DNA from: a phage
Length of the DNA stretch: 64,000 nucleotides
Direction: 5' to 3' (one strand)
Sequence record: PQ327946.1
How positions within the stretch are numbered: position 1 is the stretch's first letter; every line of letters begins with the position of its first letter. The translations under genes and the position numbers were made by a program. The notes beneath the pieces are model-generated. The model saw nothing but the letters and a program-made list of their open reading frames with translations. It ran no database searches and was not told where the DNA came from. This document shows, one piece after another, positions 37,737-50,091 of the stretch.

Positions 37737-37766
37737 ATAGTATCACACATTCATGTGTTTGTAAAC
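37737..37766 (-). promoter_or_regulatory. early promoter for the alt.-1-like ORF
   Basis: Minus strand GTTTACAAACACATGAATGTGTGATACTAT, then leader CATCAACAACATGAGGAAAACGTT-ATG. Confidence 0.6.
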
Positions 37767-39853
37767 TATCCTTGGACAAATTTAAACGGAACTGATTCTA
37801 AATCCATTAAAGATGCTAACAATTTCAATCCTTTAGGAGCACTAGTTTTTTCTACAAACGTGGAGAACGATACCAGCTCATCTGATTCGATTTCACCCGT
37901 CATAGCAACCACCTCGCCTGTTTCCATGAGAACATCACCGTCGTAAATGACAGCTTCGTCCAACTGGTCCGAGGACATGACTTCAGCTTGAATAAATTTA
38001 AGGTTGGATTCTAAACCTGCACCAGTGTCAGATGACGCATCTGTAATTTTATTTATCTGCAAGAGAATACCTCTAGGCAAAATAATTTCTTGCTCGTTAG
38101 GGTGATTACTCAACTGTCCAGGATAAATCACGTTAACTTTATGGGCGCCATCAATAGCCCATCCAACGTTAACACGGATTTGGTCTGGTGCATGCATAGC
38201 TGTTCTTACTTGACTAGGAGAAATAGTAACACCTTCGTCATTATTATCAATGTTAAGCTCTTTGCGAACTTCTTCAGGAGCAAGTCCAAGGGCAACGTTC
38301 TCTTTAAACCCACCGAAAATAATAGGAGCTAGTGAAGTGGAAACATAGTTTCTGAAGTAGAATACCTTATTTTTAACCATTGCTTCGTAAATAGGCATTC
38401 TGATAGACTGGGCTCTATATAACGTTAGTCCTTCAGGTAAACGGTCTCCATTTAAAAACGCTGAATCAAGACCATCAATAGCGCGTTTAACTTCATCTTC
38501 ATCTGCAACATCGTAAAAATCTGGTTTATAACGACCTAACAGCATATTATTGATATCGGTATACGCAGAAGAGGCATATTCACGAATAGCTCGTTTTTCA
38601 GCAACAGAGTATTGATTAGGGACCCGATTCATTGTTATATTAAAGGTGCCTCTAGCCGATTCTCGTGCATAAGTATACATCACATTAGACAAGAACGCTG
38701 ATTTACGTTGTTTCCAAGTTCTTTCAGATACTTCAGCTAAAACGTCGTCGGGCAGTTGGAAATTATCACGTCTAAAATCTTCAAACCATTCGTCTTTAAT
38801 AGAGTCTGCAATTTCATTTGCAGCTTCAACAAAAGCAGCTAATGCTTTAACAGATGTTGTTTTTTCAGTTTTAATTTTCTTAGCAAACTTTTCTAAAGTC
38901 GGCTTAATAACACTACCATAAGAAACTTCATCAGCAAATTTAAAGGATTCATCAATACGATTATAAATCTTATTTTCGATATCAGCAACTAAAGTGCCTT
39001 TTGCTGTGGACGATGCTTGGGCTAGTACGATTTCATATGCTTCAGGAAGTAATTCGGCTGTAGCTGGGCCACTAACTTCTTTAGCAGAATTTTCATATTT
39101 CTGGAATAACTCACCTTCTTGGCGGTCAGCTTCTAAAGATTGACTTGCTGCAATAGCACGACGAGAAATTTTAGTACGAGCAATAACAGGCTTATCTTTA
39201 CGTTTTTCTTCTACAGCAGCAATAGAACCAGCGATAGCCGTTTCTTTGGTGACCTTTTCACCAGTCTTTTTACTCACATAAACTTCGCCAACTTCAGAAT
39301 CTACTTTCGTGTACAACTCTGTGTTAATGTTAGGGATGCCTTTAATATCTTCAATGTTGGCATTTTTACGAACCATCATCACATAGGTGTGTTTACCTGT
39401 GAATTGATACATTGCTGACAATACTTTAAAACGACCGCCAGTTTTAGTAGAAACTAAACGAGCAAGAAGAGTTTGAAGCTGTTGTCCACGTCCTTTCAAT
39501 TTCTTGGTAGGGAATCGGAACAGAACTGCATCCATACGAAGAGCTTTAACCTGTTCATATACTGTATTGAAAATGGTGTTGATTGCATCAATAGGAGCAG
39601 GACCAAGGCCGTTTTTCAATTCAGCGAGATTACCCTTTTCAGACAGACTCATAATAACAACATGAGCGTATTTGTCGCCAAGTTTAACTTGTTTTACAGC
39701 ATCGCCTTCAGAAAGGTAAGAGAATAAGCGAACTACGATGTTTGTATCAACATCACCAATTTTCCAGACTTGTGGAACTTTAGCTTTAGGGTTCAAATTG
39801 ACGACAGGAAGACTGCCTTCAGATTCAAACACTTCATTTAATTGTTCAGACAT
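37766..39853 (-). CDS. alt: Alt-like ADP-ribosyltransferase (capsid-packaged, modifies host RNA polymerase)
   Basis: 695 aa; size and position between gene 54 and ligase as T4 Alt. Confidence 0.8.
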   Translation of the reverse strand: MSEQLNEVFESEGSLPVVNLNPKAKVPQVWKIGDVDTNIVVRLFSYLSEGDAVKQVKLGDKYAHVVIMSLSEKGNLAELKNGLGPAPIDAINTIFNTVYEQVKALRMDAVLFRFPTKKLKGRGQQLQTLLARLVSTKTGGRFKVLSAMYQFTGKHTYVMMVRKNANIEDIKGIPNINTELYTKVDSEVGEVYVSKKTGEKVTKETAIAGSIAAVEEKRKDKPVIARTKISRRAIAASQSLEADRQEGELFQKYENSAKEVSGPATAELLPEAYEIVLAQASSTAKGTLVADIENKIYNRIDESFKFADEVSYGSVIKPTLEKFAKKIKTEKTTSVKALAAFVEAANEIADSIKDEWFEDFRRDNFQLPDDVLAEVSERTWKQRKSAFLSNVMYTYARESARGTFNITMNRVPNQYSVAEKRAIREYASSAYTDINNMLLGRYKPDFYDVADEDEVKRAIDGLDSAFLNGDRLPEGLTLYRAQSIRMPIYEAMVKNKVFYFRNYVSTSLAPIIFGGFKENVALGLAPEEVRKELNIDNNDEGVTISPSQVRTAMHAPDQIRVNVGWAIDGAHKVNVIYPGQLSNHPNEQEIILPRGILLQINKITDASSDTGAGLESNLKFIQAEVMSSDQLDEAVIYDGDVLMETGEVVAMTGEIESDELVSFSTFVEKTSAPKGLKLLASLMDLESVPFKFVQG

Positions 39854-40098: not shown

Positions 40099-41591
40099 TA
40101 TAAACCTGTCTGGGACCACGGTCCAAATACGTCTTCAAATGAATCCGCTTCTGTTTTATCAAAACGGAACCCTTTAATAATTGGAAGGAAAATACCTACA
40201 GTACCTTCACGGCCTTTAGAATGAACCCAACCATTACATTCACAATCAGCGATACGTCCAATTAATTTACCTTCACGGGCTTCTGTCATTAATCGTTCAC
40301 GGTCTAAATCATGACGCTCGTCTAAAGGAATAAGAACCTTTACACCGTCAACTGTTTTATGAGTTGTATCTTTAAACCCTGAACCACAATCGGTTGTAAT
40401 ACGACGACAACGTGATACGAGTTCGACACCACCTAATTTGTTAGGGTCTTTAGAGTGTTCATAGTATCCTACAACTTCTAAAGCGATATCAATAACTTCT
40501 TTAAATTTAATTAGGTTCTTAGAGCGTTTGTTTTCCCAATATGAATCACGGTTTTTAAGGATAATACCTTCAAGGCCTTGGTCAACATATTTTTTATAAA
40601 CCACTTTAGCTTCGTCAAGATTACGAACTAACTGGTTTTCGATAGGTTCAATTCGCTTAAAGCCTTCAGCCATATTTTCAAGAGCAGCAAAACGAACATC
40701 GTATTTCTGACCTTTAATTTTGCCATCAGAATAGACTTCATCTAAAGGAACATAGTCCCAGGCTTGAAGAACCATACCTTCCGCTTCTTTAGGAGAAATA
40801 GTCCCTTGAAGAGATTTATTTGCTAAACCATTTGAAGTGCTACGGTCTGCAACTTGTACTTCTTCGGATTCTTCATTATCACCAAATAAGAACGACAGAT
40901 CATTTCCTGAGCTCACAGCCTTTTTAATATCGAATGAATGATAAACTAATTCACCGTCGATTAAAACCCCATTAGGGTGTCTTTCACGAGCTTCTTTAGT
41001 CATTTCCATTAGTTCATCCGCTAATAGAGTAAGACCATGGTATTCGTTACCGGCACGAGAAAAGAATTGAACACCACCATCGCGGACTTCAGCGAAACAA
41101 CGAGCACCATCTGCTTTTAATTGGGCAAATGCGGGCCATTTAATATTTTTAGTAATCAATTTCTCATCATATGCAGATGCTAACATCTGTGGTTGCAATT
41201 GAATAAGTCCAGGCCACACCTTATTCGCGATAGACACTGAAGCACCTACTTCAAGGTCTCGCATCATTACACGGCGTAGTACTTCAACATCATCAGGTTT
41301 ACCGTCGGCGATATAACCCATGAGCTCTTTAATTGCTGCATTACCAGTGAGTTTACGAGTGGCCAATGTGAACTCAATAAAATCCAACATGTCATCTAAT
41401 TCAAGAAGGCCATACGCTTGAGACCTTTCACCTGGCCCCGGCCATTTCTTAATATAATACTGAATGCCATGTGCATACGTTAAACGATATACACGTTCAA
41501 GTAATTTGTTGTCCTTATTTTTCTTAAGGATTTCCTGTTTTGTTTTAGTAGAACCGATCGCAGCTATTTGGTTTAAAATATCTAAAATCAT
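40098..41591 (-). CDS. 30: ATP-dependent DNA ligase gp30
   Basis: 497 aa; MILDILNQIAAIGSTKTKQEIL...; adenylation motif KADGAR; closely matches T4 DNA ligase. Confidence 0.96.
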   Translation of the reverse strand: MILDILNQIAAIGSTKTKQEILKKNKDNKLLERVYRLTYAHGIQYYIKKWPGPGERSQAYGLLELDDMLDFIEFTLATRKLTGNAAIKELMGYIADGKPDDVEVLRRVMMRDLEVGASVSIANKVWPGLIQLQPQMLASAYDEKLITKNIKWPAFAQLKADGARCFAEVRDGGVQFFSRAGNEYHGLTLLADELMEMTKEARERHPNGVLIDGELVYHSFDIKKAVSSGNDLSFLFGDNEESEEVQVADRSTSNGLANKSLQGTISPKEAEGMVLQAWDYVPLDEVYSDGKIKGQKYDVRFAALENMAEGFKRIEPIENQLVRNLDEAKVVYKKYVDQGLEGIILKNRDSYWENKRSKNLIKFKEVIDIALEVVGYYEHSKDPNKLGGVELVSRCRRITTDCGSGFKDTTHKTVDGVKVLIPLDERHDLDRERLMTEAREGKLIGRIADCECNGWVHSKGREGTVGIFLPIIKGFRFDKTEADSFEDVFGPWSQTGL

Positions 41592-41866: not shown

Positions 41867-42682
41867 TTAACAATTTATAGACCAAGTCCATTTGGACGAA
41901 TCTAAAGGAAAGTTTTGAATCGTCCACCATGGCTGCATATCGGTTGGTCCTTGGTTTCGCCAGGTATACGGATTCGACGGAGTGCCAATTTGATTAGGCC
42001 ATGCACCTGGACTTGTTGCACCAGATTCTTTAAGCAAATCTGCCAATCGTTTTAAAAGGTCTTCACTATCTGAATCTGAATTATGCTCTGGCGGAACCAA
42101 TCGAGATTCAATATCATCCCACGTGTGTACACGTTGTGCAGTACGAGGAATGGCATCACGTTCACCACGAGCCAACCAATAAATCGGTACATTAAGAATT
42201 TCTGCTGCATGGTCACAGTGATGAGCTAAATCGTCAACGTAACAAATCACGTTATATTTTGTTTTAGCTAGTTCAAATAATTGTTCCTTTGAAGAATCAT
42301 GACCACACATCATTACTTCAGAGAAAGCGCCTGGGAACAAAGCATTCAAATTAAATTGTCTATTCAATCGAGCATCAATTGAATCACCTAGCGCCGTCAC
42401 GGCTACAAAATTATAGTCTTCTTTTAGTTTATTGATAACTCGAAGAGCATCAGAATAAGGCGCTAAGTAACGAATAAAATCAGAGCTATTATATTTTTCT
42501 ATTAATTGTTTACCAAGGTTATCGTCGGTATTGAACAGTTTACCAGGAGAAATAAATTTTTCGTCCTGAATCATTTTTAAAATATGTTCTAATGGAAGAT
42601 TATATTTTTGGGCAAAATAAGGAAGTCCAGATTGCCAGCTTAAACATACACCATCAATATCAGTCAAAATAGTAGGCTTCAT
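41867..42682 (-). CDS. 30.2: HAD-superfamily hydrolase-like protein (T4 30.2 position)
   Basis: 271 aa; N-terminal ILTDIDGV resembles HAD motif I (DxDG). Confidence 0.65.
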   Translation of the reverse strand: MKPTILTDIDGVCLSWQSGLPYFAQKYNLPLEHILKMIQDEKFISPGKLFNTDDNLGKQLIEKYNSSDFIRYLAPYSDALRVINKLKEDYNFVAVTALGDSIDARLNRQFNLNALFPGAFSEVMMCGHDSSKEQLFELAKTKYNVICYVDDLAHHCDHAAEILNVPIYWLARGERDAIPRTAQRVHTWDDIESRLVPPEHNSDSDSEDLLKRLADLLKESGATSPGAWPNQIGTPSNPYTWRNQGPTDMQPWWTIQNFPLDSSKWTWSINC

Positions 42683-43146
42683 AAAGAGTCTCTTAATAGG
42701 TTTAACACATCAATAAATTCGGCTTCGGTTAATATTGTATCATCTTTTGTTAGGTGGCTGGCCATGCTGTGCTTCAAAATTTTTCCTTTAGAGGCTTGTA
42801 AGGCATCGCGAAACCCCTTGTTTTGGATCGCGGCTTCAAAATATGCATTTGTGTATAATTCTTTCCACGCTTCAGAGTATCTTGAAAATGGAACTCCTAA
42901 CCAGAAGAGAGTCCCACGGTCCTGAGCTCTTGCATAAGACCTTCCAGCTTGCTGTGCGGCCAGACCTGACAGCCCAAATATACGTCTTTGTTGTTCAACA
43001 TTTTTCACCTTACATCCTTGGAGAAATCCTTCAAGACCTCCGAATTGAATACCATCCATAACAAAAGGCCATTGAGCAAAGTTACTTAATGCACATGACG
43101 GCCACTTGAAATTACTTCTTATTTCTAATTCAGACATCTTTAACAC
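42679..43146 (-). CDS. 30.3: NADAR (YbiA/DUF1768) family protein (T4 30.3 position)
   Basis: 155 aa; LSNFAQWPFVMDGIQFGGLEGFLQGCK aligns with E. coli YbiA FSNFAAWPIKVDGKTWPTSEHYFQAQK. Confidence 0.7.
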   Translation of the reverse strand: MLKMSELEIRSNFKWPSCALSNFAQWPFVMDGIQFGGLEGFLQGCKVKNVEQQRRIFGLSGLAAQQAGRSYARAQDRGTLFWLGVPFSRYSEAWKELYTNAYFEAAIQNKGFRDALQASKGKILKHSMASHLTKDDTILTEAEFIDVLNLLRDSL

Positions 43147-43342
43147 TTATAATTTCAACATCAGCCCAATGACCGTAACTAGGCAGACGGTCTTCAATGG
43201 ATAAACCACCGTCATTTTTAAGCATTTTAATTGTCTTGATATACGGTTCATCCTGTGGATGAATAGGCGAGCAGTCAGTCACACGATAAGTAACTTCGAC
43301 CATTTCCGTGCCTAACAATTTCTGGATTAATTTATTCAACAT
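43130..43342 (-). CDS. hypothetical protein (70 aa)
   Basis: ORF in the 30.x cluster, tightly packed with neighbours. Confidence 0.5.
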   Translation of the reverse strand: MLNKLIQKLLGTEMVEVTYRVTDCSPIHPQDEPYIKTIKMLKNDGGLSIEDRLPSYGHWADVEIISVKDV

Positions 43343-43585: not shown

Positions 43586-44200
43586 CTACTTAATGAAATT
43601 AATTTCTACCGGATGAACAACAGGTTGAGCAGTGATATATTGAGTAATTGCTTTCATGACTAGAGCTTCAGAACCAGGATTTTTCTCAACGAATTCACGT
43701 GCTCGGTTATGAGCTTCGAGTTCACTCAATAAACCGGAACGTTGGCATCCACGGTCTTGAGTACCCTGTTCAGATAAAAGGACTACTACATATTTTTCAT
43801 CGTCGTAGGGCTTAGCCAGTTGAGCAAATGTTCCTTTACTTCCAAAAGGAGAGTTATGTCGCCACATCACGCCGTGAGGAGTTTCAACCTTCGTATATTC
43901 GTGCGGGCCATTTTTCTTAGTTTCTTGATGTGGAACTTCATAGACCTTAGGGTTAGGACATTCAATAAAATGCTCATCTAAATCGGTCGAGAATATTAAA
44001 GTAAAACAATTACTGAATTTACCAACACCCGCCTGATAAATTTTACCTTCAGAAGTTCTAATTTCACAAACCGAGCCGGCATCAGTAACTTCTAAAACTT
44101 CAAAAGGCTCAATAAGGTCATATGAGAACATGTTTTTAAGGCGTGGAGTAATATCCCCATTTTTAAAATTCATTTTATAAAAAGTATTAACTTTAAACAT
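43586..44200 (-). CDS. hypothetical protein (204 aa)
   Basis: Start moved to MFKVNTFYK... with SD GAGGAA; the track's TTG-initiated extension (MGASAPTEEI) is a read-through of the upstream GC hairpin. Confidence 0.6.
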   Translation of the reverse strand: MFKVNTFYKMNFKNGDITPRLKNMFSYDLIEPFEVLEVTDAGSVCEIRTSEGKIYQAGVGKFSNCFTLIFSTDLDEHFIECPNPKVYEVPHQETKKNGPHEYTKVETPHGVMWRHNSPFGSKGTFAQLAKPYDDEKYVVVLLSEQGTQDRGCQRSGLLSELEAHNRAREFVEKNPGSEALVMKAITQYITAQPVVHPVEINFIK

Positions 44201-44212
44201 AATTTCCTCAGT

Positions 44213-44228
44213 GGGAGCCGAAGCTCCC
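44213..44228 (-). terminator. GC hairpin (UUCG loop) between two minus-strand ORFs
   Basis: Minus strand GGGAGCTTCGGCTCCC; no U-run. Confidence 0.4.
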
Positions 44229-44235
44229 AATTAAT

Positions 44236-46688: not shown

Positions 46689-47259
46689 AAAAGTTTCGGA
46701 TTTGTTCCCAATTCAGAGAACGAAGATTATTACGAGAGTACTGAATTACTTCAATACCAGCTTGTTTAAGAATGTCTGCCCAATTTTCAGGAGATCGGTC
46801 ATATAATTCTGCATATACAACCTTTTTAATACCTGACTGTGTAATAGCTTTAGTGCAATCAGGACATGGAGAAAGTGTCGTATACAACGTAGCACCTTCA
46901 ATAGAATTACCTTTGCGAGCAGCAAACAAAATGGCATTCAATTCTGCATGGATTTCATTATTAGCAGACCATGCACTATGAGCGGCCCGATGTTCTTTAG
47001 CCAAAACAAAATTATCTGCCCGTCCAAATGATGTAGTGCCTTCTTTATGCCCAGCAACGATGACCGGGCTTGGTTTATTCTTCAACCAACCGTTTTCGGA
47101 TGCATGTTCACAACAGTTAACACCACCTGCAGGTGAACCATTATATCCGGTAGAAATAATGCGTCCATCTTTTTCAATGACGGCACCAACTTTCCATGAA
47201 CAACATTTTGATTCTTGAGAAATCAGATATGCAATCTGAAGGTATGTGCTAGCTTTCAT
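46678..47259 (-). CDS. cd: dCMP deaminase
   Basis: 193 aa; zinc-binding cytidine/dCMP deaminase motifs (CEHA...SPCPDC); matches T4 Cd. Confidence 0.95.
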   Translation of the reverse strand: MKASTYLQIAYLISQESKCCSWKVGAVIEKDGRIISTGYNGSPAGGVNCCEHASENGWLKNKPSPVIVAGHKEGTTSFGRADNFVLAKEHRAAHSAWSANNEIHAELNAILFAARKGNSIEGATLYTTLSPCPDCTKAITQSGIKKVVYAELYDRSPENWADILKQAGIEVIQYSRNNLRSLNWEQIRNFCGE

Positions 47260-48251
47260 TATTGAACCTTATTAATATAAGTTAACAGCTCTTTAGTTTG
47301 TTCCCAACTGATGCACGCATCGGTAATGGAAACGCCATAGGACATATTATCAGAAATTTTTTGATTTCCTTCATGTAGGAATGATTCTATCATAATTCCT
47401 TTGACCAAATCATTAGCTGCTAAATTTTTACCAATACCAATTTGATTGCTATAATGTCCAGCAGCGTTTGCATGGCTACAGTCAACCATTACATAATGAT
47501 TCAGACCTACTGCACTTGCTTTGTTAGAAGCTTCTTGAATATCAGAAGAATGATAGTTCGGGCCGTTGGTCCCGCCACGCAATACGATATGCGTATTCTG
47601 ATTACCTTCAGCTTCAACAATGCCTACAGTACCATCGACGTCCATACCCATATACCGATGAGGCCAGGCGGCACTATACATCGCGTCTGTAGCTACTTTA
47701 ATAGAACCATTGGTTGCGTTCTTGAAGCCTACGCACATCGGTAGACCTGAAGCAATTTCACGATGTGTCTGACTTTCAGTCGTACGGGCGCCAATAGCAA
47801 CCCATGAGAAAATACCAGAAAGATACTTAATCGTGAATGGGTCTAATACTTCAGTTGCTAATGGAAGTCCCATACGTAGAAGTTTACGACACAATGTTCG
47901 TGCAACTATAAGACCGTGGTTCATATCAAAACTTCCGTCAAGATATGGATCATTTACAAGACCTTTCCAACCTACGGTAGTTCGAGGCTTTTCAAAATAA
48001 ACGCGCATCACTAACAGAACATTAGGAAGACGAGTTTGAAGTTCAGCCAGACGTTTGCCGTATTCAACAGCAGCAATAGGGTCATGAATTGAACAAGGAC
48101 CTACAACAATAAGTTTGCGTGGGTCTTCACCGTTCATAATCGAATTAACTTGTTCGCGATGAGAAGCCACTTGTGATGCGTAAGCTTCCGACAAAGGAAT
48201 AATCTCAGCCAGTTCTTTTGGAGAAATAAGTTTTCTGATGACAGGTAACAT
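47259..48251 (-). CDS. 3-deoxy-7-phosphoheptulonate (DAHP) synthase, class I (AroG/AroF/AroH-like)
   Basis: 330 aa; LIVVGPCSIHDP, RVYFEKPRTTVGWKGLVNDP, IGARTTESQTHREIASGL, ITDACISWE all align with E. coli AroG; stop overlaps cd start (TAATG). Confidence 0.85.
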   Translation of the reverse strand: MLPVIRKLISPKELAEIIPLSEAYASQVASHREQVNSIMNGEDPRKLIVVGPCSIHDPIAAVEYGKRLAELQTRLPNVLLVMRVYFEKPRTTVGWKGLVNDPYLDGSFDMNHGLIVARTLCRKLLRMGLPLATEVLDPFTIKYLSGIFSWVAIGARTTESQTHREIASGLPMCVGFKNATNGSIKVATDAMYSAAWPHRYMGMDVDGTVGIVEAEGNQNTHIVLRGGTNGPNYHSSDIQEASNKASAVGLNHYVMVDCSHANAAGHYSNQIGIGKNLAANDLVKGIMIESFLHEGNQKISDNMSYGVSITDACISWEQTKELLTYINKVQ

Positions 48252-49176: not shown

Positions 49177-49357
49177 TTAACCATTCAATTGCCTGGTCGA
49201 CGTTATCAAATATACTGCCGTCCAACCATTCTTCATGTTCATAGTCCAGCACATCAATACCGAACCGTCCATTTACTAAAGGCCATACGCAGAAGAAAAA
49301 GCATTTACGTTTTTCAATTTCTTCGATTGTACGAAAAATCTTTTCGATATTATTCAT
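49157..49357 (-). CDS. hypothetical protein (66 aa)
   Basis: ORF in cd-pseT interval, overlapping neighbours by a few codons. Confidence 0.45.
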   Translation of the reverse strand: MNNIEKIFRTIEEIEKRKCFFFCVWPLVNGRFGIDVLDYEHEEWLDGSIFDNVDQAIEWLNENYVR

Positions 49358-50072
49358 AGGTTTTCCATTTGCGGCCTAATTGCCAATCAGGATGGCTCAA
49401 TCTAGGGTCGTTTTCATCTGTTGTAGAAGATTTCTTACCTGAAATATGGATAAGCCATTTTCTGGATTTAGCTGCTTTAGAATAGTTTTCTTTTGCCTTA
49501 TCTGAACGAATCTTACCTTTATTCGCTTCGGATATTTTATTACCCCATTCTATAATAGCTTCTTCGCTCATAAAATCTTTTACATTTTTACCGTACATAG
49601 GATTATTTTCGCCTTCAAATGAATTACCATTTTTAAGACGACTTTCTTTAGATTTAATCCCATGCCCTGGTAATTTCTTGCCTTTAATCCATGGCACGGC
49701 ACCGTTTTTATATCTCTGTTTTTGTGTTTCTGAAATTTTTAATGAAGTTTCAGGGCTGGAATTAACATTAATACGGTTTTCATTGATATAATCCCAGCCT
49801 CCTTCTCCACCAGGTTTCAAATTATAATTAGTATCCAATTTTATAAATTCTTTAGTTACTAATTCGGCTTCTAAATCATATGCTTCTTGTTTAGTTTCAA
49901 ATATTTTTATGATTTCTTTATTAAAAGAATCTTTACCATATTTTGATTCGGCATTTTTAAAAGCTGTACCAGAACCTAAATAAGAATCATTTTCTTTTAA
50001 GGTCTTATGAACCCCTATATAAATTTTGTTGTTAACCAAACATGTGGTTTTATACACAGTGTACTTTTCCAT
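49350..50072 (-). CDS. seg-like GIY-YIG homing endonuclease
   Basis: Start moved to ATG (MEKYTVYKTTCLVNNKIYIGVHKT); GIY-YIG module plus DSYLGSG...KYG motif; TATAAATA late promoter 20 nt upstream; no seg gene at this position in T4. Confidence 0.75.
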   Translation of the reverse strand: MEKYTVYKTTCLVNNKIYIGVHKTLKENDSYLGSGTAFKNAESKYGKDSFNKEIIKIFETKQEAYDLEAELVTKEFIKLDTNYNLKPGGEGGWDYINENRINVNSSPETSLKISETQKQRYKNGAVPWIKGKKLPGHGIKSKESRLKNGNSFEGENNPMYGKNVKDFMSEEAIIEWGNKISEANKGKIRSDKAKENYSKAAKSRKWLIHISGKKSSTTDENDPRLSHPDWQLGRKWKTYE

Positions 50073-50091
50073 TAGAATCACCTCTATAGAT

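Follow-up and report, generated by a model that had tools for sequence, protein, structure and literature searches.

An intact orthologue of T4 adfN, encoding a predicted NADAR-family DNA ADP-ribosylglycohydrolase, in a Mosigvirus-type T-even phage

Genetic organisation of the adfN region

We analysed a 64,000-nucleotide stretch of a phage genome (sequence record PQ327946.1), referred to here as the window. Its minus strand carries the gene order 30.8, 30.7, a 214-aa ORF, a 69-aa ORF, 30.4, 30.3, 30.2, 30.1, 30 (DNA ligase), alt.1 and alt (Table 1), and the succession 30.4, 30.3, 30.2, 30.1, 30, alt.1, alt is common to the window, T4 and RB69. Between positions 41500 and 44300 the window shares 99.5% identity with Escherichia phage ST0; related records have been assigned to Mosigvirus, the genus of RB69.

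Gene 30.3, known as adfN in T4, lies in an uninterrupted minus-strand ORF at 42679..43146 that comprises 155 aa when counted from a GTG codon. A previous reading of this DNA, made from the sequence alone (hereafter the sequence-only reading), had described a 155-aa ORF; the open frame stands, but its start is probably the ATG at 43137..43135 rather than the GTG at 43146, giving a protein of 152 aa. We prefer the ATG because the annotated length of T4 30.3 is 459 nt and the alignment spans both proteins from end to end, because close homologues in the alignment open with MSELE, and because the published T4 numbering of E36 and K43 is reproduced by the ATG start only. The stop codon of 30.4 overlaps this ATG (ATGTCTGA), and the stop codon of adfN overlaps the start of 30.2 in the sequence ATGA, as in T4. 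The alt gene sits approximately 2.8 kb beyond adfN in the same direction of transcription, and hence downstream of it, which reverses the earlier placement of 30.3 downstream of Alt. A scan for promoters and terminators between 39800 and 46000 returned counts equal to those of shuffled sequence (21 versus 19.3 and 4 versus 4.4, respectively).

Table 1. Location of adfN, its functional codons and selected neighbouring genes in the window
Feature	Position	Strand	Basis or remark
adfN (gene 30.3) CDS, predicted phage-type NADAR DNA ADP-ribosylglycohydrolase	42679..43137	-	152 aa plus stop; PF08010, T4 identity, model fold
Nine bases GTG TTA AAG	43138..43146	-	within the 155-aa ORF; probably outside translated AdfN
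Glu36 codon GAA, predicted catalytic	43030..43032	-	invariant in 56 homologues; aligned with YbiA Glu
Lys43 codon AAG, predicted catalytic	43009..43011	-	invariant in 56 homologues; aligned with YbiA Lys
His123 codon CAC, phage-NADAR residue of the last strand	42769..42771	-	invariant in 56 homologues
Codons 138-152, predicted C-terminal alpha-helix	42682..42726	-	model helix 138-151; lost in RB69
Gene 30.4 homologue, 70 aa, directly upstream of adfN	43130..43342	-	phrog_2042 E = 4e-34; arrangement as T4 30.4/30.3
Gene 30.2, predicted HAD-superfamily hydrolase, 271 aa (context; role in the mechanism not shown)	41867..42682	-	motifs, model, Foldseek
alt, packaged ADP-ribosyltransferase, 695 aa (context only)	37766..39853	-	ADPrib_exo_Tox E = 4e-28; syntenic with T4 and RB69 alt

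An internal frame designated 30.3', for which T4 annotates an out-of-frame product, is interrupted in the window (42774-43001, minus strand) by an in-frame stop at codon 35, which argues that 30.3' is no conserved gene.

Several other genes of the window were recorded in passing. The 214-aa ORF (window 43586-44230, minus strand) occupies the place of T4 30.5/30.6 and RB69 30.6; it matched only phrog_17531 (function unknown, E = 1e-146), with no match in Pfam, and seems to form a variable cassette in a region where counter-defence genes are now known to occur. Directly after the dCMP deaminase gene we found a 330-aa phage class I DAHP synthase (window 47259-48251, minus strand; PF00793, E = 6e-75) that is also annotated in phage 348Ecol098PP; the corresponding regions of T4 and RB69 lack this gene, which may serve the shikimate pathway as an auxiliary metabolic gene. 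A 243-aa GIY-YIG/NUMOD3 protein, a Seg-like homing endonuclease, is encoded at window 49350-50081 on the minus strand.

Family and predicted fold of AdfN

AdfN matched the Pfam family Phage_30_3 (PF08010) over the full length of the profile, with E = 1.9e-69 and a score of 232 bits (cut-off 36). This was the only Pfam family reported, the NADAR profile PF08719 giving no match to AdfN even at E up to 10; the missing PF08719 match has little bearing on superfamily membership, as the phage branch has a separate Pfam family. Neither NCBIfam nor PADLOC held a match to AdfN, and a single-sequence phmmer search of the PDB found nothing. Profile comparisons reached the E. coli NADAR protein YbiA from both sides: YbiA matched PF08010 with E = 0.004, a profile of the AdfN family (56 members) matched PDB entry 2b3w (YbiA) with E = 0.0011 and the SNFA...DG...E..Q..K core in register, and hhalign aligned the family profile to YbiA with 93.5% probability (E = 2.3e-7, 91 columns). 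The YbiA query sequence was checked through its match to the NADAR family of Pfam (E = 1.5e-38) and its agreement with residues 29-84 of 2b3w. For one homologue (P0082), PF08010 and PF08719 are both recorded, and at least one database record already carries the labels 'ybiA-like protein' and 'HAD-like protein' for the homologues.

An AlphaFold2 model of AdfN, built on a 55-sequence alignment from which the T4 row was left out, had a mean pLDDT of 94.1 and a pTM of 0.89, and showed an alpha+beta fold in which small beta hairpins flank a helical core, as in solved NADAR structures. A Foldseek search of the PDB with this model returned YbiA (2b3w) as the best match (E = 5.7e-5, TM 0.69, 17% identity), followed by a Phytophthora NADAR with ADP-ribose (8bau) and the NADAR of Geobacter lovleyi DarG1 (8bat), while all matches below these three NADAR structures were noise with E > 3. 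Taken together, the profile homology and the predicted fold establish AdfN as a member of the NADAR superfamily (the phage NADAR/gp30.3/AdfN family), a relationship well above chance. The sequence-only reading had identified the 30.3 homologue as a NADAR protein, and PF08010, the profile homology and the top three Foldseek matches bear this out. It had also suggested HMM searches for the NADAR and HAD families, with a mixed outcome in that PF08719 did not match and HAD_2 stayed below threshold, whereas PF08010 matched and YbiA was reached by profiles; the structure prediction that it had suggested as a further check confirmed the NADAR fold with a pLDDT of 94.

Catalytic residues and the C-terminal helix

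The residues E36, K43 and H123 are invariant across the 56 homologues, down to 35% identity. In the alignment of the AdfN motif with YbiA residues 29-55 the catalytic Glu and Lys coincide, so that the NADAR core motif to which the sequence-only reading had pointed in its comparison with YbiA is indeed present. These two conserved residues correspond to E88/K95 in the E. coli C7 NADAR and to E36/K43 in T4 AdfN. H123 directly follows strand 120-122 in the AdfN model, and extending the hhalign register by one residue would place it opposite YbiA E125. A His at this catalytic position on the last strand is a hallmark of phage NADARs, the corresponding residue being Glu in the YbiA type and Asp in the DarG1 type (PMC11125620, PMC11543638). 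Missing catalytic residues had been put forward as evidence that would speak against a NADAR enzyme; the alignment contains all three.

AdfN of the window is identical to T4 gp30.3 at 147 of 152 positions (97%) without gaps. The five substitutions relative to T4 (R11K, P89E, V120I, I125M and G128H) fall on none of the family-invariant columns; one of them, G128H, lies in the loop that follows the catalytic His. The two proteins share their length of 152 aa, the same neighbours and gene overlaps, E36/K43/H123 and the C-terminal helix; the phages differ in that T4 is a Tequatrovirus and the host phage of the present gene is a Mosigvirus, 99.5% identical to ST0 over 2.8 kb.

RB69 belongs to the same genus and its gp30.3 is 97% identical over the shared 137 residues. 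In contrast to the window and T4, however, the RB69 gene contains an extra T (alignment column 411), and the resulting +1 frameshift ends the protein at T137 with the loss of the last 15 residues. Residues 138-152 of AdfN in the window are identical to those of T4 and the RB69-type insertion is absent, so the C-terminal helix is kept. We considered an RB69-like pseudogene and rejected it, since the frameshift is absent from the window gene. RB69 with its truncated AdfN allele is DarTG1-sensitive, and a truncated T4 AdfN allele has lowered activity (PMC11825919). What our analysis documents for the gene of the window is orthology to T4 adfN, the fold, the conservation of the catalytic residues and an intact frame.

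Among the close relatives of AdfN from E. coli phages and metagenomes (P0004-P0007, P0013-P0018, P0051 and P0102), many are short (83-126 aa) or carry matches to Pfam families of neighbouring genes (PF06919, PF06019 and PF11097). This suggests that AdfN has repeatedly been inactivated or rearranged, as in RB69, although some of the short records may be contig-end fragments.

Published function of T4 AdfN

T4 gp30.3 was renamed AdfN as a guanine-specific DNA ADP-ribosylglycohydrolase that allows T-even replication on DarTG1 hosts (Johannesman et al., Nat Commun 2025, PMC11825919). Genetic mapping identified adfN as the T-even determinant of DarTG1 resistance, necessary and sufficient in the T-even context (PMC11825919), and resistance during infection has been shown for the T4 and T2 alleles (PMC11825919; bioRxiv 10.1101/2025.11.20.689424). 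Purified T4 AdfN strips ADP-ribose from DarT1-modified DNA, is weakened by the substitutions E36A and K43A, does not bind DarT1 and has no effect on the thymine-modifying DarTG2 (PMC11825919); in vitro, guanine-ADPr is hydrolysed and thymine-ADPr is not (Toxins 2024, PMC11125620; PMC12945103). In the HIDEN-SEQ screen, phages with a transposon in adfN disappear on DarTG1 hosts, which makes the gene conditionally essential there, and adfN is dispensable on K-12 hosts without DarTG1 (bioRxiv 10.1101/2025.11.20.689424). T4 AdfN does not protect uninfected cells against DarT1, and it performs poorly for T5 and Bas25 (PMC11825919, PMC11125620); the isolated enzyme therefore does not fully explain the mechanism in vivo. 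The methods of PMC11125620 give the T4 NADAR construct as 'gp30.3; residues 1-208', compared with 152 aa for T4 gp30.3.

For the protein of the window, enzymatic activity, DarTG1 phenotype and specificity are carried over from this work on the T4 protein, and we infer that the present allele, with its five substitutions, would behave like T4 AdfN. The sequence-only reading had proposed a counter-defence that reverses DarT-type guanine ADP-ribosylation, a proposal now supported by its match to the experiments on the 97%-identical T4 AdfN, with the qualification that it holds for DarTG1 only and not for DarTG2.

The neighbouring HAD gene 30.2

Among 44 homologues of the 30.2 product, D8, D10, G11, K132, D150 and D151 of the HAD motifs (DxD, Thr/Ser, Lys and DD) are invariant and T96 is nearly so. 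The AlphaFold2 model has a pLDDT mostly above 90 over residues 1-200 and shows a Rossmann-like fold with a cap, as expected of a HAD core. In contrast to this well-conserved core, the Trp/Pro-rich tail (residues 227-271, window 41867-42004) is predicted to be disordered (pLDDT < 50) and among the 44 homologues is either hypervariable, in both length and sequence, or missing. Foldseek returned 105 PDB matches for the model at E <= 0.001; the 50 that were listed are HAD-type hydrolases or designs on that fold, and the lowest rmsd among the matches listed belonged to the 5'(3')-deoxyribonucleotidases 2jao, 4mum and 4yih. None of the curated HAD models scored above threshold (HAD_2, 16 bits with a cut-off of 23.8; TIGR01428, 12.8 with a cut-off of 125), the 30.2 profile matched 2jao with E = 0.15, and the only match in NCBIfam and PADLOC, HAD_type_II, was meaningless. 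On its motifs and model, 30.2 is a genuine HAD-fold protein nearest to the 5'(3')-deoxyribonucleotidases, and it looks catalytically competent. The assignment of the 271-aa neighbour as HAD-type in the sequence-only reading is upheld by the DxDG motif I with which the protein begins, and by the motifs and model. A literature search on gp30.2 returned no papers.

Conservation of the adfN neighbourhood

We examined by HMM search 80 IMG/VR viral loci with an AdfN homologue, with up to approximately 4 kb fetched on each side. A 30.2 homologue overlaps or abuts the adfN homologue in about 14 of them, lies 0.7-1.2 kb downstream in six and was found weakly upstream in one. The DNA fetched at the remaining 59 loci contained no 30.2 homologue, one of these contigs ending inside the gene and a few others having short flanks. 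Clustering of the neighbouring ORFs of the 80 loci revealed no partner conserved outside the close T-even set, and an Alt-like ORF (cluster 8) lies within 3 kb downstream of the adfN homologue at only 13. Acinetobacter phage Acj9 has 30.3 and 30.2 side by side; Erwinia phage Cronus has 30.2 beside the ligase gene, and the 8.9 kb fetched around 30.2 contain no PF08010 gene. Judged by these gene orders, the adjacency of 30.3 and 30.2 seems to be a matter of inherited synteny in the ligase region, and the proximity of adfN to alt likewise reflects synteny of that region. The small nucleotide- or ADP-ribose-processing cluster that the sequence-only reading had seen in adfN and the HAD gene is weakened by the 59 loci that lack 30.2.

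Comparison with other antitoxin-like enzymes

The DarG1 NADARs (BC4488 family, including those of Geobacter lovleyi, 8bat, and E. coli C7) are reported to be the closest relatives of phage NADARs (PMC11825919). They share with AdfN the fold and the hydrolysis of guanine-ADPr, which for AdfN is known from the T4 work. However, DarG1 is larger (219 residues in 8bat), with extra N-terminal elements, has an Asp at the third catalytic position and has DarT1 alongside, whereas AdfN of the window is a 152-aa core with His123 and an orphan between 30.4 and 30.2. No DarT1 gene lies next to adfN, the sole nearby ADP-ribosyltransferase being Alt, approximately 2.8 kb away. AdfN is no DarG1 antitoxin, because it has no adjacent DarT1, its third residue is His and not Asp, and it consists of the core only; T4 AdfN, for its part, cannot replace DarG1 in uninfected cells (PMC11825919).

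YbiA (2b3w) is the best structural match to AdfN and has in common with it the SNFA..P...DG....E..Q..K core. In contrast to AdfN, YbiA carries Glu instead of His on the last strand and is encoded in a chromosomal LexA-regulated operon; it cannot protect cells against DarT1 (PMC11125620). AdfN is no YbiA-type enzyme. The nearest functional parallels among phages are AdfN-Bas32, AdfN-Bas60 and AdfM (the T4 tk.4 macrodomain), which like AdfN are orphan antitoxin-like ADP-ribosylglycohydrolases that counter DarTG. AdfN-Bas32 and AdfN-Bas60 differ in belonging to other NADAR branches and in functioning without the T-even context, and AdfM in being a macrodomain aimed at the thymine-modifying DarTG2.

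Alternative explanations

The enzyme might mainly process the products of the phage's own Alt, ModA or ModB, or soluble ADP-ribose derivatives or signals, with repair of DarT1-modified DNA as a side activity. The position of alt on the same strand would suit such a role; a 2022 comparative survey described T4-like NADAR genes as early and near ADP-ribosyltransferases and regarded soluble ADPr derivatives as the likelier substrates (PMC9503650), and NADARs strip guanine-ADPr from RNA too in vitro (PMC12945103). Later experiments on T4 AdfN, however, give a clear DarTG1-specific phenotype together with de-ADP-ribosylation of DNA, the dispensability of adfN on K-12 without DarTG1 (bioRxiv 10.1101/2025.11.20.689424) also speaks against a main role of this kind, and the link to alt is one of ligase-region synteny, with an Alt-like ORF nearby at only 13 of the 80 loci. 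We therefore hold a main role on Alt-type or soluble substrates to be very unlikely. Action on ADP-ribose from Alt, which the sequence-only reading had offered as a second possibility, finds no support, the T4 AdfN experiments giving no role on Alt products. That AdfN is instead a housekeeping N-glycosidase of the YbiA kind with riboflavin-pathway intermediates as substrates, an activity that has been assigned to YbiA-type NADARs (PMC11825919, PMC9503650), would fit with YbiA being its best structural match. Against this, AdfN and YbiA share only 17% identity in the fold alignment, the third catalytic residue is a His as opposed to the family-defining Glu of YbiA, the published phylogeny places phage NADARs nearest DarG1 (PMC11825919), and the neighbouring ORFs examined include no riboflavin genes, making a riboflavin-pathway role extremely improbable.

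The overlap of 30.3 and 30.2 through ATGA, here and in T4, raises the question of a two-enzyme module, in which the translationally coupled HAD phosphatase gp30.2 would be the T-even-specific factor on which the full activity of AdfN in the cell depends, for instance because it clears away the liberated ADP-ribose or a phosphorylated form of it. The requirement of T4 AdfN for a T-even context (PMC11825919), the apparent catalytic competence of 30.2 and the adjacency of the pair in Acj9 and at about 14 viral loci are compatible with this arrangement. Yet 30.2 is missing from the DNA fetched at nearly three quarters of the AdfN loci, Cronus has 30.2 with no PF08010 gene around it, no neighbouring partner is conserved beyond the close T-even set, the main text of the HIDEN-SEQ study names no gene other than adfN for DarTG1 (bioRxiv 10.1101/2025.11.20.689424), and we found no paper on gp30.2. 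We accordingly consider the module very unlikely; if it were real, T-even phages would possess a two-step counter-defence module made up of 30.3 and 30.2.

Proposed role and significance

[quoted passage not shown] Removal of the adduct would let replication go on, and the DarTG1 defence would fail. AdfN is predicted to act enzymatically, via Glu36, Lys43 and the phage-specific His123, with toxin binding not involved; it would be expected to be useless against the thymine-modifying DarTG2 and to work fully only in a T-even infection.

Publications from 2023 to 2025 already describe the family, its fold, the catalytic residues, the substrate and the role in counter-defence, and the present analysis adds no new biology. 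It provides a firm annotation of 30.3 for this window. Since its adfN looks functional, the phage is predicted, in contrast to RB69 of the same genus, to form plaques on E. coli that carries DarTG1; this prediction is of use in host-range studies of phages, phage therapy among them.
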